DNA of 32,000 bases from Pyrodictium delaneyi (lineage in GTDB: Archaea > Thermoproteota > Thermoprotei_A > Sulfolobales > Pyrodictiaceae). The DNA is taken from the NCBI RefSeq assembly GCF_001412615.1, contig NZ_CP013011.1, forward strand, positions 360,001 to 392,000, read 5' to 3'. Of the stretch, positions 1 through 6,965 are shown one piece after another. The position numbers and the translations under genes are program-made. Positions within the stretch are counted from its first letter, which is position 1; the number at the start of each line of letters is the position of its first letter. Below the pieces are notes generated by a model. The model was given only the letters and a program-made list of their open reading frames with translations, was not told where the DNA came from and did not search any database.

Positions 1-1254
1 TTCCCGAAGGACTGGTTCCACCCCACATTCTGGCCCCTTGCCTACACGCGACGGGCTGAGCTGCGGAAACGGTTCCAGGAGCTAGCCGAGCTCTATGGCT
101 CCCGCCGCATCGCTCGTGCCGTCGTGGGCGAGGAGATAGCTGAGGAGGCTCTCCGCCGCGCAAACACCGCTGCCGCGCGTATAGCACGTGTTGTGGTCCA
201 CCCCGACTACCGTGGCGACGGGCTCGGCGTCCTAGCAGTGAAGATGGCGCTTGAATGGATACGGGAGCGCCGCATCCCAGAGATGAAGAGGAGGAAACAT
301 GTAGTCGAGACCATAGCCCAGATGGCGCGGTTCAACCCGTTCTTCGAGAGGGCCGGGTTCCGCTACATGTGGGACACGGCTAGCGGCCGCCCTGTGCTAA
401 TGTACCCGCTCACCGAGGAAGCTCGGAAGAGGATAGAGGAGTTCCTTGAGAAGGACCCCTATGCCCGCCGCCACGGTGGCAAACTTTTCCGTCCACGCTA
501 TGGCGGTGTTGAGCCTCTTTCAGGGCCGATAAAGCTAGTCAACCTCACCAAGATCTACCGTAGCGAGCTAGACGTCTCCAGACTCCCACCCGAACTACAA
601 GACGTATTGCGCGCCTTTGGCGCCGAGAGGAGGCGAGTAGAACGCTACGTGCTGCGCAACACGAGCTTCGAGATAAAGCCAGGCGAGGTAGTCGCAGTGG
701 TAGGCGCTAGCGGCGCAGGAAAGACCACCCTGTTACGCATGATTATAGGCGCTGCGCTGGGCGCCAGGGACGAGAACTACCAGCCGAGCCAGGGCAGGGT
801 AGAGGTGCCGAACAACGTTAAGCTCGCCGCGTTACTGCCCGGGGAGATGGAACCGGTGTTCGGCAGCGAGACTCTGCTAGAACACGTAGCCCGTAAGATA
901 GGAGACCCAGCCGCGGCTGTAGAGATACTCAACGCCGTCGGGCTGAGCGATGCAATATTCTACCGCGCCCGGTTCGACGAGCTCTCCACTGGCCAGAAAG
1001 AGCGGGCCCGGCTAGCAAGCCTCCTCGCAGAGAGGCCCAACCTACTGGTCATAGACGAGTTTACTGCCCACCTGGATCGTCTGACAGCGCAGAGGGTTGC
1101 CCGTAAGCTGAGCAGCCTAGCACGTCGCGTAGGCATAACCCTGGTGGTCTCCACTAACCGGCCAGAAGTGCTCCAGGCGCTAGCACCGGACAAGGTGGTG
1201 CTCGTCGGCTACGGCACGGCAGTAGTAGCGGAAGAGAGGACTGGGGCCCGGTAG
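1..1254 (+). CDS. GNAT acetyltransferase domain fused to an ABC-type ATPase (5'-truncated by the window edge; COG2401-like architecture)
   Basis: Frame 1 is open from nt 1 with no stop before the GTG at 124, so the gene starts upstream of the window. GNAT acetyl-CoA motif 'RVVVHPDYRGDGLGVLAV' lies at ~nt 187-240. ABC motifs present: Walker A 'GASGAGKTT' (nt 703-729), signature 'LSTGQ', Walker B 'LLVIDEF', D-loop 'AHLD'. No permease gene is adjacent. Confidence 0.85.
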   Translation, partial: FPKDWFHPTFWPLAYTRRAELRKRFQELAELYGSRRIARAVVGEEIAEEALRRANTAAARIARVVVHPDYRGDGLGVLAVKMALEWIRERRIPEMKRRKHVVETIAQMARFNPFFERAGFRYMWDTASGRPVLMYPLTEEARKRIEEFLEKDPYARRHGGKLFRPRYGGVEPLSGPIKLVNLTKIYRSELDVSRLPPELQDVLRAFGAERRRVERYVLRNTSFEIKPGEVVAVVGASGAGKTTLLRMIIGAALGARDENYQPSQGRVEVPNNVKLAALLPGEMEPVFGSETLLEHVARKIGDPAAAVEILNAVGLSDAIFYRARFDELSTGQKERARLASLLAERPNLLVIDEFTAHLDRLTAQRVARKLSSLARRVGITLVVSTNRPEVLQALAPDKVVLVGYGTAVVAEERTGAR

Positions 1255-1354
1255 AGCCTTCACCCCCTCCACCTTATCGCGTCTGTCCTGGGGGCTTGTC
1301 CTGGCGGAGAAGCATAGCCCGGAGAGGCTCATAGTAGTAACCGGCGTCTCCGGG

Positions 1355-2545
1355 GTGGAGCTAGCCCCGCTGTTAAAGCTGGCAGAGGAGCTTGGAGCTG
1401 CTACTGCGAAGTACGAGGAGTTCGTAGAGGAGGAGTTCAAGGCACCCATCTACCACGTAGCAGAGCTACTATTGGTTTACTATAGGCGCACTAGCGAACG
1501 GTTCGAGAAGGCCTTCAAGAAGATGCTAGACAGTCTCTCCGACAGCAAGGCCGCCGTGGTAGCAGCGCATGCTGCCTACTACCGGCGCAGCAACATCGTG
1601 GCTAGCCCACTCGCAGGGTTCATACACCGGCTAGCAGCCAGGGGCGAGGCCTCAGTAGCCATAGTGGACTACGTTGACGACTATTACCACATACTATACC
1701 GGCTCGCCGACCGGGTAGCCCGGGGCGAGACGCCAGAAGTGGCCGGGTTCCAGGTTCTAGACCCGGCTGGCCTCCTATACTGGAGGAGCACACACCACAG
1801 TATAGCCCAGCTCGCCGCGATACACGGGGCCGAGTTCTACGTCTACGCCTCCAAGCATAGTCGTGAGGGGCACCGCCGACTCCTCGCTATGCTCCTCGGC
1901 CAGGAGCCTGAAGAGGGTGGCAGCTTCCACACAGTCTACGTCTCCCACCCCATAACCAGGGTGAGAGCCCGGGCAATACGGGAGGGCAAGCCGCTAGACC
2001 GGTACCCGGACGCCCTGGAGATAGAGGAGTTCAAGAGGACTCTCGAGGATAGCTGCCCCAACCTCGTAGTATTCTCACCCACCACGGTGGACGAGCTGAT
2101 AACAGACCCTGGCACGGGGAGGCTGAAGACACGGATAAAACGGGAAGACCGCTGGCCCCACGGAGAGAATGGTCTCCACGAGTATCCCTATCCTGTGGAT
2201 CTCCGGGACCGGCTGTTCGATCTCCACCTCTATCCTGTCGACGACACTACCGGGAACCAGGGCTACATGAGCTACCTGCAGACCCAGATCGAGGCGAGTA
2301 TAGAGAGACGCGACTTGAGCTACGTAGCCCAGGCAGACATGATAATAGCGTATAGGCCGACAATGTACGGTGAGACGCACATGGGCGTCGAGACGGAGAT
2401 AAAGACCGCCGTAGCCATGGCTAAGCCCGTCTACAGCGTGATCCCGCCGGACGAGAGGAGCATAGCCTACCGGCTCTTCAGGTTCGAGTACCCCCTCCGC
2501 AGCATAGATGAGCTACTCAATGTGCTCCGTTGCAGCCGCCGGTGA
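1355..2545 (+). CDS. Uncharacterised protein; the C-terminal ~185 aa resemble a nucleoside 2-deoxyribosyltransferase / MTH538 TIR-like flavodoxin fold
   Basis: 396-codon ORF with a GTG start, 100 nt downstream of the GNAT-ABC gene on the same strand. Codon usage matches its neighbours. C-terminal pattern: 'TVYVSHPIT' (beta1) ... 'NLVVFSP' ... 'AQADMIIAYRPTMYGETHMGVETEIKTAVAMAKPVYSVIP' (late acidic residue followed by A..A.KPV). The N-terminal half has no motif I recognise. Confidence 0.6.
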   Translation: MELAPLLKLAEELGAATAKYEEFVEEEFKAPIYHVAELLLVYYRRTSERFEKAFKKMLDSLSDSKAAVVAAHAAYYRRSNIVASPLAGFIHRLAARGEASVAIVDYVDDYYHILYRLADRVARGETPEVAGFQVLDPAGLLYWRSTHHSIAQLAAIHGAEFYVYASKHSREGHRRLLAMLLGQEPEEGGSFHTVYVSHPITRVRARAIREGKPLDRYPDALEIEEFKRTLEDSCPNLVVFSPTTVDELITDPGTGRLKTRIKREDRWPHGENGLHEYPYPVDLRDRLFDLHLYPVDDTTGNQGYMSYLQTQIEASIERRDLSYVAQADMIIAYRPTMYGETHMGVETEIKTAVAMAKPVYSVIPPDERSIAYRLFRFEYPLRSIDELLNVLRCSRR

Positions 2546-2579
2546 GGAGCCATTTTCTAGATCCCAGAACTCCCATGCC

Positions 2580-4010
2580 TCATTCTCGGCGTCTATCGCT
2601 CCGCTGCTGTGCCCCACCGGGGCCGGGCTGCTGCATAGGAGCTGGCGGTTGAGCTTGAGCAAGACCCGCAGCTGGAGCCGCAGGGGCTGGCGGCCGGGCA
2701 GGAGCCAGAGGCTGGCCCTGATAAGGCGGCTGAACCGCTGCGTAGGGGTATGGAGCAGGCTGCCACTGTTGCGGCTGTTGCACAGGGGCCGCCGCGTAGT
2801 AGTGGACCTGGTACTGCTGCGGAGCCGGCGGCTGGGCAGGGGGCTGCAGGTGTAGTGGCTGCGAGTTTGCCTGGTAGGCCAGCGGCTGGGTAGCTTGCTG
2901 GATGTTTGCTGCGTGTGGTTGTCCTAGGGCCTGCTGTGGCCAGGCCTGGTAGCCGGGCCATGGGCTCTGGGGCTGCTGCCCGGGCGGCTGGACTGGCATC
3001 GGCGGTTGCTGTGCTAGTGGCCGGGGCGGGGCGTAGACTGGCGCTGGCGCTTGTCCCTGGGGCGTCTGTGCAGCTGGCTGTGTTGCGAAGGCGCGCTGGT
3101 AGGCGGCGCGTATGTCCTCGTCTAGTAAGTGGAGGTAGATCTGGGTCACCTTGATGTCGTGGTGGCCGAGGAGCCTCTGGACTACTGGGAGTGGGACGCC
3201 ACGGCGGAGCGCCTCGGTGGCGAAGGTGTGGCGCAGCACGTGGGGCCGGACACGGCGTGGGTCGAGGCCAGCGCGGCGGGCTAGCGTCTTGAGCCTCTTG
3301 TAGAGCCCGCTGTAGCTTATCCCAAGCAAGGGGTCGTCGGGGCCGAGCTTCGGGTTAAGAGCTAGCCATATTGCTAGCGCTTGCTCGGTCAACGGGCCAT
3401 AGAGTACTACCCGCTCCTCGCCGTACTTGGCGTTCCTCACGCGTATCTCGCGCCGCCCAGTGTCTATGTCGCGTAGCCGTAGCCCCACTGCCTCCTGGGC
3501 GCGGAGCCCTGTCTCGAACAGTAGCGCTACTATCAGCAAGTCTAGGGGGTCGCGGGCAGCTGATACCAGGCGCTCGACTTCCTCAGGCCGCAGCGCCTCG
3601 ACTCGTGGGCTCCTGGGCTTACGCACAACCGGCACCTTGACGTTCAGGCCGAGCCACTCTAGGAATCCGCGGAGGAACAACGTGTAATAGTGCATCGTTG
3701 TCTGCCGTTCCCTCCTCTCCTCTGCTGGATCGCTGTCACGGCTTCGGGGCCTCTGGAGTCCACGGGTAAGACGGTCATAGATCCACGCGGAGACGTCGCT
3801 GCTGGTTACTTCGCGGAGCCGCTTATCGCCTATAAACGAGAGAAAGTCACTGATAGCTGCCCGGTAAGCCTTTACAGTCTTAGGACTAGCACCAGCTGCT
3901 GCTAGCGCGGCAAGGAACGCCTCCATCGCCTCCAGGTTGCTCCGCTCTAGTATTCCTGGTGGTGGCGGCGGCAGGTCAAACCGCGTCACTACAGAACCCT
4001 TAGAGAACAA
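2580..4010 (-). CDS. Tyrosine recombinase (XerA/XerC/XerD-like) with a long P/Q/A-rich C-terminal extension
   Basis: N-terminal SAM-like core-binding domain ('SPKTVKAYRAAISDFLSF'). Catalytic signature is complete: 'LLFETGLRAQE' (Arg), 'HVLRHTFATE' (H-x-x-R), 'LLGHHDIKVTQIYLHL' (His and the nucleophilic Tyr at ~aa 292). TTG start at 4010. The ORF continues ~184 codons past the catalytic Tyr. Confidence 0.9.
   Translation of the reverse strand: MFSKGSVVTRFDLPPPPPGILERSNLEAMEAFLAALAAAGASPKTVKAYRAAISDFLSFIGDKRLREVTSSDVSAWIYDRLTRGLQRPRSRDSDPAEERRERQTTMHYYTLFLRGFLEWLGLNVKVPVVRKPRSPRVEALRPEEVERLVSAARDPLDLLIVALLFETGLRAQEAVGLRLRDIDTGRREIRVRNAKYGEERVVLYGPLTEQALAIWLALNPKLGPDDPLLGISYSGLYKRLKTLARRAGLDPRRVRPHVLRHTFATEALRRGVPLPVVQRLLGHHDIKVTQIYLHLLDEDIRAAYQRAFATQPAAQTPQGQAPAPVYAPPRPLAQQPPMPVQPPGQQPQSPWPGYQAWPQQALGQPHAANIQQATQPLAYQANSQPLHLQPPAQPPAPQQYQVHYYAAAPVQQPQQWQPAPYPYAAVQPPYQGQPLAPARPPAPAAPAAGLAQAQPPAPMQQPGPGGAQQRSDRRRE
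2583..3086 (-). other. Low-complexity P/Q/A-rich tail of the recombinase ORF (~aa 309-476)
   Basis: By my count about 42 P, 38 Q and 33 A in 168 residues, with interspersed Y/W ('PWPGYQAWPQQ', 'QQYQVHYYAAAP', 'WQPAPYPYAAVQPPYQGQ'). It ends in a charged 'RSDRRRE'. The DNA here is very GC-rich, so all six frames are open. Confidence 0.6.
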
Positions 4011-4107
4011 TTATACAGTCATGAAGGGGGCCGAGGCCTCGCCCCAATAAATACCCTGGTAACACTCCGCTATTCAGAGTCATGAAAGATGAGTTTACTA
4101 CAACCTA

Positions 4108-4464
4108 TTACTCCTCTATGGTCACGTCTTTGGCAGGACACCTGCCTCCCACAATCATGGCGGTACGAGGTAGAGAGTAGTATAGGAGCAGAACGGAGAC
4201 TACAAATTTGATCCAGGAGCCTTCCCCGGATAGAAACAGGTAGAGCCATTGGACACCCAGGAGAGTAAACAACACATCAAAAATGCATACAAGAAGCCTT
4301 TGCTTGCCGTTAGCGACAAGCCAGGCTCCTATAACAGCGCCTAGAACAAGCCCCAATAGGGCTACCTGGAACTGCAAGAGAGACCCCATACTGCTATAAT
4401 AGTACGGTATTATTATAGTTACTATTGACCATACGTGCCATAGTAAATCCCGTAGCGTGTACAC
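4108..4464 (-). CDS. Small hypothetical membrane protein (3-4 predicted TM segments)
   Basis: 118-codon ORF with a GTG start (alternative internal Met 'MGSLLQF'). Hydrophobic stretches 'VWSIVTIIIPYYY', 'ALLGLVLGAVIGAWLV', 'VCIFDVLFTLLGVQWLYLFL', 'FVVSVLLLYY'. GC is lower than in neighbouring genes. No motif recognised. Same strand as the recombinase and 97 nt upstream of it. Confidence 0.4.
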   Translation of the reverse strand: MYTLRDLLWHVWSIVTIIIPYYYSSMGSLLQFQVALLGLVLGAVIGAWLVANGKQRLLVCIFDVLFTLLGVQWLYLFLSGEGSWIKFVVSVLLLYYSLPRTAMIVGGRCPAKDVTIEE

Positions 4465-4958
4465 TCAAGAGGCCTACCTAGAAGCTATGCCAGCGCCTCT
4501 AGGGCCTACGAGGCTGTCACTAATGTGACTTGGCGTTATCAGATGGAGGCCCTCACCAAGTGTAGTAGCCCGCGGAGCCCACAGTCTCCAGCCGGCTTTC
4601 ATTGATGAGAATCTTCAAACTCTCGGATCATCAATACTATGTTGAGCATAAATGCAAAAGATATGCCTCAATAACTATTATGATCTTACTAGAAGTCTCT
4701 AGCGACAATGTGGGACACAAGGTATGCTATAAACCTCAAGATGAAGAGCTTAGGAGATATCCATGATATCGAAGTATAGTGATGATTGTGGACCTGGTGT
4801 TCCACCAGTAATACTCCTAGATATCTCTCCTCATCTCTTAGGCTGTGTCAACAATGGTATACTGTATATTCTAAGATGTTAAATATGGCGTTATTCTTTT
4901 AACGAAGAGGGTTGATAGACATTAGGCGAGCGGTTCTCTCGGCAGGTGGCGAAGAGCC

Positions 4959-6965
4959 ATGGCTACCGAGCAGGGCCTCCCCTTTGGCGAGAAGTATCAT
5001 CCTGCTATCAAGAAGCTGATGGAGCTTCGGCGAGAGAGTCTAGAGAACATTGAAGAGTTCTGGGATAAGAGGGCCCGTGCACTCATCTGGTTCAAGTACT
5101 GGGACAAAGTCCTCGACGACTCGAACCCGCCGTTCTTCCGTTGGTTCGTGGGAGGCGTCACTAACATAACTGTTAACGCTCTCGACCGGTGGATCGAGAC
5201 ACCGGTCAAGAACAAGGTTGCTTACTACTGGGAAGGCGAGCCCGGGGACACCCGCGTCCTCAGCTACTTCGAGCTGTGGCGCGAAGTTAACAGATTCGCC
5301 AAGGTCCTCAAGGACCTCGGTATAAAGCCGGACGACCGCGTAGTAATATACATGCCCATGATACCCGAGCTCCCAATAGCCATGCTAGCTGCTGCACGTA
5401 TAGGCGCTATACACAGCGTAGTCTTCAGCGGTTTCAGCCCCAAGGCGCTCGCCGACCGTATAGTCGACGCTAAGGCTAAGCTCCTGATAACTGCCGATGG
5501 CTACTACCGCCGCGGCAAGGTGATAAACCTCAAGAAGAACGCTGACGAGGGTGTCAGGCTAGCCGAGGAGCAGGGCGTCAAGGTAGAGAAGGTTCTCGTG
5601 GTGAAGAGAGGCGGCCTAGACCTAGACGTGAACATGGTCGAGGGCCGCGACTACTGGTACGACGAGCTAGTAAAGAATGTACCCTATAACACCTACGTAC
5701 CCCCGGAGCCCAGGAAGAGCGACGACGTACTCTTCATACTCTATAGCAGCGGTACAACTGGCAAGCCTAAGGGCATAATGCACAGCGTAGGCGGCTACAT
5801 GGTCTGGACCTACTGGAGCTTCAAGTGGACCTGGGACCCCAGGCCCGACGACGTAATGTGGACCGCCGCTGACATAGGCTGGATCACCGGCCACACCTAC
5901 ATAGTATACGCCCCGCTAATGCACGGCATGACCAACGTTATGTATGAGGGCGCGCCAGACTACCCGCAGCCCGACCGCGTCTGGGAGATAGTTGAGAAGT
6001 ACCGTGTCACAATACTCTACACCAGCCCAACTGCGATAAGGCTATTCCGCAAGTACGGCGACGAGTGGGTCAAGAAGCACGACCTCAGCAGCCTAAGGCT
6101 ACTCGGCAGCGTAGGCGAGCCGATAAACCCCGACGTCTGGAAGTGGTACTACGAAGTAGTAGGCGGAGGCAAGACCCCGATAGTCGATACATGGTGGCAG
6201 ACCGAGACCGGCGCCGCCATGATAGCCCCAGTGCCCGGCATAGCACTAGTGCCGCTCAAGCCCGGCAGCGCTACCTTCCCACTCCCCGGCGTAGACGCCG
6301 ACGTAGTCAACGACAAGGGCGAGCCAACAAAGCCCGGCGAGAAGGGCTACCTAGTGATAAAGCGGCCGTGGCCCGGCATGTTGATAGGCCTCTGGGGCGA
6401 CCCACAGCGCTACATAAGGACCTACTGGCAGCGCTTCAGCAAGCCCGATGAAGGAGTCTGGATCTACTACCCAGCCGACTACGCCGTGAAGGACGAGGAC
6501 GGCTACATCTGGATGCTAGGCCGCGCCGACGAGGTGCTCAACGTAGCCGGTCACAGGCTCGGCACCACCGAGATAGAGGACGCCATACTCGCCCACCCAG
6601 CCGTAGCCGAGGCCGCCGTAGTAGGCATACCCGACCCAATCAAGGGCGAGGTACCACTAGCAGTAGTAGTGCTACGCGAGGGCTACAAGCCCAGCAAGGA
6701 GCTAGAAGAGGAGATCAAGCAGACAGTCCGCAAGATACTAAGCCCCATCGCCGTACCGAAGCGCGTACTCTTCGTCAACAAGCTGCCAAAGACAAGAAGC
6801 GGCAAGATAATGAGGAGGCTGATAAAGGCCGTAGCCACCGGCGCCCCACTAGGCGACGTCAGCACCCTAGAGGACGAGGCCAGCGTCGAGGAGATAAAGA
6901 GGGCCTGGGAGGAGTTCAAGAAGGCAATCGAGGAAGGCGAACGCCTCCTCCGCGAAAGCAGCTAA
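4959..6965 (+). CDS. acs: Acetyl-CoA synthetase (AMP-forming)
   Basis: 668 aa. AMP-binding signature '[11 protein letters not shown]'. Typical Acs blocks 'WWQTETG', '[38 protein letters not shown]' and '[12 protein letters not shown]'. Confidence 0.95.

Follow-up and report, generated by a model that had tools for sequence, protein, structure and literature searches.

Gene content at the start of the window

The DNA considered here is a stretch of 32,000 nucleotides (nt) of the Pyrodictium delaneyi genome (contig NZ_CP013011.1, positions 360,001 to 392,000; hereafter the window), which begins with two open reading frames (ORFs) on the plus strand, the first (ORF1) encoding a GNAT acetyltransferase domain fused to an ABC-type ATPase and the second (ORF2) encoding a two-domain protein that belongs to an unannotated family. 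A preliminary description of the window had proposed that the two genes form a conflict module, with the ATPase/acetyltransferase as the sensor and a glycosidase-like ORF2 product as the effector. Our analysis combined profile searches, structural models and the comparison of related loci, and it leads us to favour, with guarded confidence, the view that two independent genes have become adjacent by chance in one subclade of the Pyrodictiaceae and that ORF2 encodes a predicted nucleotide N-glycosidase carrying a pseudokinase nucleotide-binding domain.

ORF1 (1..1254, plus strand) is the 3' two-thirds of its gene, corresponding to 417 of 662 codons as judged from its translation, its Pfam matches and full-length orthologues; frame 1 has no stop between the window edge and the TAG at 1252-1254 and yields 417 aa, and the 5' 245 codons lie off-window. 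Positions 1-5254 of the window are 99.98% identical to another P. delaneyi assembly (GCA_002194565.1, contig NCQP01000007.1; locus L117), from which the missing 5' part was recovered, and the full-length protein of 662 aa is encoded at L117:4001-5989 and also at L001:5950-7938. The GNAT region (approximately nt 130-423) matches the Pfam models Acetyltransf_7 (5.9e-6) and Acetyltransf_1 (8.8e-6) over aa 46-121, the ABC nucleotide-binding domain (approximately nt 652-1200) matches ABC_tran (9e-20) over aa 218-356, and no permease gene adjoins the GNAT-ABC gene in any genome examined. The reading of ORF1 as a permease-less ABC ATPase fused to a GNAT domain, already made in the preliminary description, is thereby borne out. 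This layout, in which a GNAT domain precedes the only ABC nucleotide-binding domain and a permease is lacking, is that of the COG2401-type ABC ATPases with a predicted acetyltransferase domain, from which ORF1 does not differ, and its close homologues bear the JGI name 'ABC-type ATPase with predicted acetyltransferase domain'. Named homologues from Pyrolobus, Aeropyrum, Staphylothermus and Stetteria are 65-72% identical. In the PDB, the GNAT-ABC protein is matched best by ABC-F proteins (EttA, 3e-21) and ABCE1, and judged by sequence the single ABC domain is nearest to the soluble, ribosome- or translation-associated ABC ATPases. The N-terminal region of approximately 290 aa (off-window; L001:5950-6820 and L117:4001-4870) is large and conserved, has no match in Pfam and contains a Cys4 zinc-ribbon-like motif, CPVCG…CPRD. 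We found nothing relevant on the function of COG2401 or on GNAT/ABC ATPase fusions in the papers searched.

ORF2 is the ORF at 1355..2545 (plus strand), which encodes 396 aa and starts 100 nt past the ORF1 stop on the same strand, as had been reported, with a start codon that is uncertain. Conserved coding sequence (…PERLIVVTGVSG) reaches at least 33 nt upstream of GTG1355, the first canonical start, and the conserved N-terminal strand and P-loop of the protein (…WGLVLAEKHSPERLIVVTGVSG) are encoded in this upstream segment (window 1229-1354). The frame is open from 1229, and between this position and GTG1355 there is no in-frame ATG, GTG or TTG; the only near-start codons are CTG1241, CTG1283, CTG1301 and ATA1331. 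Over 13 upstream codons, P. abyssi differs by five synonymous and three conservative changes, and the candidate GTG starts do not coincide, the GTG of P. abyssi being GTA here and the GTG here being GTA in P. abyssi. These comparisons suggest that in both genomes either initiation is non-canonical or the annotated start is misplaced, and the true start is probably upstream of GTG1355 and non-canonical. Because the conserved coding sequence upstream lacks a canonical start, the start of ORF2 is uncertain and its distance from ORF1 is at most 67 nt. A programmed frameshift from ORF1 into ORF2, considered since no stop interrupts the ORF2 frame from 1229 onward, was set aside in view of the separate normal start codons in related genomes.

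Domain architecture and distribution of the ORF2 family

The N-terminal domain of ORF2 (1322..1924, plus strand) is an alpha/beta domain of the archaeal adenylate kinase type with a P-loop that lacks the lysine, a similarity that the preliminary description had not seen. The AlphaFold2 model of nt 1322-1924 has a predicted local distance difference test (pLDDT) score of 88.7, and its top Foldseek matches in the PDB are archaeal adenylate kinases (1nks, 1kht, 6pk5 and 6ln3), with E-values of 4e-7 to 1e-6 and template-modelling (TM) scores of 0.65-0.70, so that the model has the fold of a nucleoside monophosphate kinase; a phmmer search of the PDB with the same domain gave no match at the sequence level. 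Thus, the overall fold is the same as that of the enzymes from Sulfolobus acidocaldarius (1nks), Methanococcus (1kht and 6pk5) and Aeropyrum (6ln3). One family member matches Pfam AAA_17, and the strand-loop 'hhhhTG(I/V/Q)(P/S)G' of the family is similar to the beginning of the archaeal adenylate kinase P-loop. Unlike these kinases, however, the ORF2 family has no Walker A GK[ST]: the P-loop position of ORF2 reads 'VVTGVSGVEL' and does not conform to GxxxxGK[ST], a lysine-less loop of the form 'hhhhTGxSGh' runs throughout the family sequences examined, and GK[ST] is absent at this position in all of them, two pattern matches being off-register. Because this motif is missing, phosphotransfer is unlikely, and the modelled domain looks like a pseudokinase or phosphate-binding domain, not an active kinase.

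The C-terminal domain (1925..2545, plus strand) has the fold of N-glycosidases of the nucleoside 2-deoxyribosyltransferase (NDT) and DNPH1 type, as indicated by Pfam, the AlphaFold2 model and Foldseek, with an insertion of approximately 60 aa (aa ~250-300). In the model of ORF2 (mean pLDDT 90.9), the domain is a flavodoxin-like three-layer alpha/beta fold that can be superposed on NDT and DNPH1, and Foldseek matched this half of the protein to YtoQ (8of6), DNPH1 (8rqd) and NDT (7o62) with a probability of 1.00 and target-normalised TM scores of 0.63-0.74. In a search of viral structures (BFVD) the top matches were likewise viral NDTs; these are single-domain proteins, and no two-domain viral counterpart of ORF2 was found among them. 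The motifs 'VYVSHP' and 'ADMIIAY', which had been picked out by eye, are real secondary-structure elements of the model, which contains 'TVYVSH' as the strand 192-197 and 'MIIAY' as the strand 329-333, followed by 'MGVETEIKTAVA' as the helix 343-354 and 'VYSV' as the strand 359-362. Of the two folds suggested in the preliminary description, the NDT type is therefore supported and the TIR or MTH538 type is not: no TIR or MTH538 chain was among the top 50 PDB matches of this half, and a single viral TIR match was weak (E 0.13, probability 0.80).

The candidate catalytic residues of this domain are Y195 (nt 1937-1939), D320 (nt 2312-2314) and E348 (nt 2396-2398), all on the plus strand. As in NDT and DNPH1, a Glu follows the fourth strand and an Asp precedes this Glu, positions taken in the ORF2 sequence by E348 and D320. 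Both residues are invariant in 33 close relatives, and among 144 diverse members they are conserved at 88% (E348) and 96% (D320). A profile of the ORF2 family pairs 'IERRD...GVETE' with 'IHEQD...GVGYE' of rat Rcl/DNPH1 (E=1.5), so that D320 and E348 each face their counterpart, an Asp and a Glu, and in longer form 'RD…QAD…GVxxE' of ORF2 aligns with 'QD…QAD…GVGYE' of Rcl. The aligned Asp and Glu of Rcl are the general acid and the nucleophile of DNPH1. The Glu that had been singled out as conserved-looking thus proved to be a candidate catalytic residue. The first-strand motif 'YxSHPI' of ORF2 would stand at the place of the phosphate/Tyr loop of DNPH1 ('YFCGSI'). ORF2 shares its alpha/beta fold with DNPH1/Rcl, the NDTs and the YtoQ-like proteins, and it differs from NDT and DNPH1 in the insertion of ~60 aa within the domain and in the fusion to a kinase-like N-terminal domain of ~190 aa; the known NDT and DNPH1 proteins have a single domain and ~130-170 aa. 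ORF2 is thus a new architectural variant in the NDT/DNPH1 superfamily, within an unannotated and fairly broad family. Both of the folds that it joins handle nucleotides and are well understood. No description of a lysine-less adenylate-kinase-like domain combined with a DNPH1/NDT-like domain was found in Pfam, NCBIfam, PADLOC or the papers searched; we found no papers that treat DNPH1 together with prokaryotes and adenylate kinase, and nothing functional on YtoQ.

The close relatives of ORF2 (n=33) are full-length proteins of the Pyrodictiaceae and Desulfurococcales type with 47-91% identity. Beyond them, an exhaustive profile search (E<=1e-3) gathered 670 clusters (50% identity) of bacterial and archaeal proteins, including Caldivirga, Thermocladium, a Nitrososphaera metagenome-assembled genome (MAG) and many bacteria; a scan of IMG/VR viral contigs with the family profile found no relatives. 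Apart from a sub-threshold NDT match, no model in Pfam, NCBIfam or PADLOC recognises the family above threshold, and no paper describing it was found in the literature searched. The positions conserved in 144 diverse members (H72, D109, W143-R144, K167-H168, Y195-x-S-H-P-I, R204, P242-x-x-D-E247, R319-D320, R334-P335, G344 and E348) fit a catalytic protein that would bind a nucleotide or phosphate. Most bacterial members are longer, at ~530 aa (for example, P0071 and P0081), and have a C-terminal extension of ~150 aa past the NDT-like domain without a Pfam match, and some archaeal members reach 570-670 aa with large insertions.

The neighbours of family genes are highly heterogeneous, with 163 Pfam families, mostly housekeeping, among 150 neighbour proteins. 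In three archaeal lineages, ORF2 relatives adjoin differing pterin or folate genes, namely a DHPS-like PterinBD-DUF4346 protein, a glycine-cleavage T protein (GcvT) and MoaE (L016:9728-11344, L010:6126-7259 and L014:6799-7539), which may be a coincidence or a weak functional hint; a link to pterin metabolism was set aside, because the neighbours differ by lineage and the theme is absent among the 150 bacterial neighbours.

Genomic context of ORF1, ORF2 and their relatives

A GNAT-ABC gene lies directly upstream of ORF2 in eight loci only, namely in P. delaneyi (including the window), in P. abyssi and at six related Pyrodictiaceae MAG loci. The distance between the two genes is -4 to 20 nt at the six MAG loci and 85-100 nt in P. 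delaneyi (the window included) and P. abyssi. Synteny of the region extends to P. abyssi, with ~85% nucleotide identity across ORF1-ORF2, and to other Pyrodictiaceae. At least 16 other archaeal loci carry ORF2 relatives without an adjoining GNAT-ABC gene, among them L016 (another Pyrodictium MAG), L003, L010-L015, L017, L018, L030 and the loci of Caldivirga, Thermocladium and Nitrososphaera. Similarly, ORF2 is lacking from all four GNAT-ABC loci examined outside Pyrodictium (in Pyrolobus fumarii, in Aeropyrum pernix, in a Desulfurococcaceae genome and in another Thermoproteota MAG), where GNAT-ABC stands beside unrelated genes: DUF488 and HerA-Mre11, a secreted protein, a flavin reductase with Maf, and a polysaccharide synthase. 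A gene of 547 aa downstream of the Aeropyrum GNAT-ABC gene was considered as a long-form ORF2 relative and rejected, since it encodes a membrane or secreted protein without a profile match. Co-conservation of GNAT-ABC and ORF2 as neighbours across lineages was therefore not found; the pair is confined to one Pyrodictiaceae subclade and the COG2401-type gene otherwise sits in unrelated housekeeping contexts, which is the outcome that the preliminary description had itself named as speaking against a paired system.

The comparison with known anti-phage systems gave a similar picture. Neither ORF2 nor the neighbouring recombinase has a PADLOC match. The GNAT-ABC protein matches mad3 (3.5e-27), AriA (6e-8) and PtuA (4.5e-3; aa ~570-650), in each case through generic ABC-ATPase portions only, and no AriB, PtuB or other defence partner gene lies beside it, so that it does not qualify as a component of a known anti-phage system. 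What it has in common with AriA of PARIS and PtuA of Septu is generic ABC/AAA_21 ATPase motifs; in contrast to them, it combines a GNAT domain with a zinc-ribbon region at the N-terminus and is strongly conserved and vertically inherited.

The ORF2 family has a single recurrent companion of a different kind. Neighbour clustering over 112 loci (111 and the window) revealed a cysteine-less protein of ~65-100 aa (~75 aa), encoded directly downstream on the same strand, as the only one that recurs. Its consensus is 'PILYFNSSKEDREA…AGVEFEF…ETPVLVVG..KFEGLSEIREFV', which by inspection has the layout of a glutaredoxin/thioredoxin fold in which other residues stand in place of the CxxC and the cis-Pro 'TP' is retained. 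A single member matches GST_N_3 at 4.6e-4, and no Pfam family covers the ~75-aa protein. A hidden Markov model (HMM) of the small protein found it in 73 of 117 loci plus the window, many of the remaining loci being truncated contigs; examples are L016:9286-9522, L003:9266-9481, L012:7626-7856 and L026:9605-9868, with ~70 further loci. Among archaeal ORF2 relatives it stands beside the family gene in L003, L006, L010-L012, L016 and L018. By tblastn and HMM searches of six-frame translations, it is absent from the 32-kb window and from the GNAT-ABC-linked Pyrodictiaceae loci, and a search of 5.8 billion proteins with its profile gave 15 archaeal members, of which none carries the name of a cultured Pyrodictium species. 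A few genes away from some ORF2 relatives, proteins of ~810-830 aa (L012:2749-5253, L013:6077-8503 and L015:7432-9900) matched the first small-partner HMM weakly (E 5e-6 to 3e-4) and, to judge by these matches, may hold a related thioredoxin-fold domain.

Downstream of ORF2, the window continues with a gene for a XerA-like tyrosine recombinase (2580..4010, minus strand), to judge by NCBIfam and Pfam; it is context only and does not belong to a module with ORF1 and ORF2. The protein matches recomb_XerA_Arch (NF040815) with 1.8e-61 and 208 bits, against a cut-off of 220 bits, over the full length of the profile, and Phage_integrase with 4.6e-30, and syntenic orthologues are present in L001, P. 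abyssi (L114) and P. delaneyi (L117). The recombinase ends in a low-complexity C-terminal tail of ~170 aa rich in Pro, Gln and Ala (window 2580-3090, minus strand), and the orthologues in P. delaneyi and P. abyssi have 469-471 aa; such an extension is unusual for Xer recombinases. In P. abyssi, two genes that P. delaneyi lacks, encoding a 191-aa protein without a Pfam match and a PaREP1-family protein, lie between ORF2 and the recombinase (L114:11237-12360), which marks a local indel site. Between the recombinase and an acetyl-CoA synthetase gene, a stretch of lower GC content (4011-4958, ~0.46; the GC content falls to 0.46 at 4001-5000) contains a 118-aa hydrophobic ORF without a Pfam match (4108-4464, minus strand), and P. 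delaneyi and P. abyssi have genes of 118 and 122 aa at the corresponding position. Scans of the window for tRNAs and Rfam families found nothing, so that the recombinase has no integration-site signature nearby. Elsewhere, the window encodes core metabolism (carAB, argGH, asd, aspartokinase, homoserine dehydrogenase and RNA ligase), and we see no sign of a mobile element or of a defence island. The recombinase and the AT-rich region to which the preliminary description had drawn attention are real, while the mobile-element setting that they were taken to indicate is not borne out by a XerA-like, syntenic gene.

Predicted function and alternative explanations

We propose a model whereby ORF1 and ORF2 would be independent chromosomal genes, possibly co-transcribed, in one Pyrodictiaceae subclade. 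In this model, the C-terminal domain of ORF2 would cleave the N-glycosidic bond of a nucleotide, the simplest substrate being a (deoxy)nucleoside 5'-monophosphate, as for DNPH1, and cleavage would proceed via a covalent Glu348-ribosyl intermediate with Asp320 as the general acid. The pseudokinase domain would transfer no phosphate and may instead bind the nucleotide or its phosphate moiety, for substrate recognition or for allosteric control. In most lineages, the small thioredoxin-/glutaredoxin-fold protein probably assists or regulates the ORF2-type enzyme. Because the ORF2 gene of Pyrodictium is vertically inherited, stands without this partner and has kept its catalytic residues, we give a housekeeping-type use in this genus, such as nucleotide-pool sanitation or salvage, more weight than a role in conflict or signalling.

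Several observations weigh against this model, which we regard as only slightly more likely than not. Concerning the C-terminal domain, aa 292-369 match the Pfam family Nuc_deoxyrib_tr (PF05014) with E=9.6e-4 and 19.7 bits, below the cut-off of 28.8 bits, which even the best family member (P0034, 26.0 bits) does not reach; the Foldseek E-values are only 4e-3 to 3e-2; and a PDB search with a profile of diverse C-terminal domains retrieved no NDT or DNPH1 chain, chance matches only. Concerning the genetic setting, the tight spacing of -4 to 20 nt means that ORF1 and ORF2 are probably co-transcribed in the subclade concerned, where a lineage-specific functional link is possible. In addition, the ORF2 family is sporadic and was not detected in Pyrolobus or Aeropyrum, and its bacterial neighbourhoods are highly variable and include some restriction and defence genes (N6_N4_Mtase three times, Mrr_cat and NA-iREase1 twice each and STALD once), a pattern that would also fit an accessory or conflict role. 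The independent role that we would assign to the GNAT-ABC protein, that of an ATP-driven acetyltransferase with a housekeeping function and a macromolecule as its substrate, is suggested by the similarity of its ABC domain only.

A broader reading of the small companion deserves mention, although we put it forward tentatively and would not expect it to prevail: the ORF2 family and the ~75-aa glutaredoxin-fold protein may constitute a new nucleotide-targeting system of two genes, conserved across bacteria and archaea and serving either toxin/immunity or the degradation of signal nucleotides, and the gene of Pyrodictium would then derive from it without the partner. A more specific explanation of this kind, which we regard as unlikely, holds that the family and its companion are a mobile toxin/immunity or defence-type module, in which a glycosidase that depletes nucleotides or nicotinamide adenine dinucleotide (NAD) is restrained by the small protein, and that the Pyrodictium copy is a domesticated orphan whose partner has been lost. 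It would account for the position of the small gene, which lies directly downstream and often overlaps in most bacterial and several archaeal loci, for the sporadic distribution of the family and for the extreme variability of its flanking genes, some of which are the restriction and defence genes listed above, with an AIPR gene near the family gene of L029 and a HEPN gene near that of L030. It would also have a precedent in the effectors of type II retrons (Retron-Sen2/Eco1), which combine an NDT-like and a DNA-binding domain and are documented NDT-like defence effectors (PMC7736814). ORF2 shares the NDT-like domain with them, but it has neither a reverse transcriptase, a non-coding RNA nor a DNA-binding domain, and both its architecture and its genomic setting differ. 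Moreover, the family has no PADLOC matches and no representative on IMG/VR viral contigs, its neighbours are mostly housekeeping genes, it is inherited vertically with conserved synteny in the Pyrodictiaceae and Desulfurococcales, and the retention of catalytic residues in loci where no partner is detectable would be unexpected for a toxin that is not neutralised.

A second explanation concerns the chemistry: ORF2 would not be a hydrolase and would act as a base-exchanging deoxyribosyltransferase in salvage, as a non-catalytic nucleotide-binding sensor or regulator (SLOG-like) or in a pterin- or cofactor-related role. The NDT fold serves both transferase and hydrolase chemistry, and both kinds are among the Foldseek matches; a pseudokinase domain hints at the sensing of a ligand; and pterin-related genes adjoin ORF2 relatives in three archaeal lineages. 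We nevertheless consider this quite improbable, since the conserved Asp/Glu pair argues for catalysis and the pterin-related genes lie on different strands, differ by lineage and form no such theme among the 150 bacterial neighbours. Finally, the original proposal that a GNAT-ABC sensor and an ORF2 glycosidase effector form an undescribed two-gene defence or conflict system beside a mobile-element recombinase draws on the common strand and the close spacing in six related loci, on the PADLOC matches of the GNAT-ABC protein to ABC-type defence ATPases (mad3 and AriA) and on the retron precedent (PMC7736814), but it is largely refuted by the missing co-conservation and we rate it as very improbable, given that the adjacency is limited to one subclade while the archaeal ORF2-family loci and the GNAT-ABC loci counted above are unpaired, that the identity of the GNAT-ABC homologues is atypical of a fast-evolving defence gene, that the PADLOC matches reflect generic ABC motifs, that ORF2 has neither a PADLOC match nor viral relatives, and that the recombinase is XerA-like and syntenic in surroundings of core metabolism.

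Thus, the combination of GNAT-ABC and ORF2 should no longer be treated as a new immune system. The GNAT-ABC protein is a strongly conserved, uncharacterised and probably essential-type enzyme of the Thermoproteota, and the main lead for ORF2 lies outside the window, in the link between its family and the small glutaredoxin-like partner. DNPH1-type enzymes control the pools of modified or damaged nucleotides, and enzymes of the NDT and TIR types often serve as immune effectors. The substrate of the ORF2 family would therefore tell a housekeeping sanitiser from a new conflict module.

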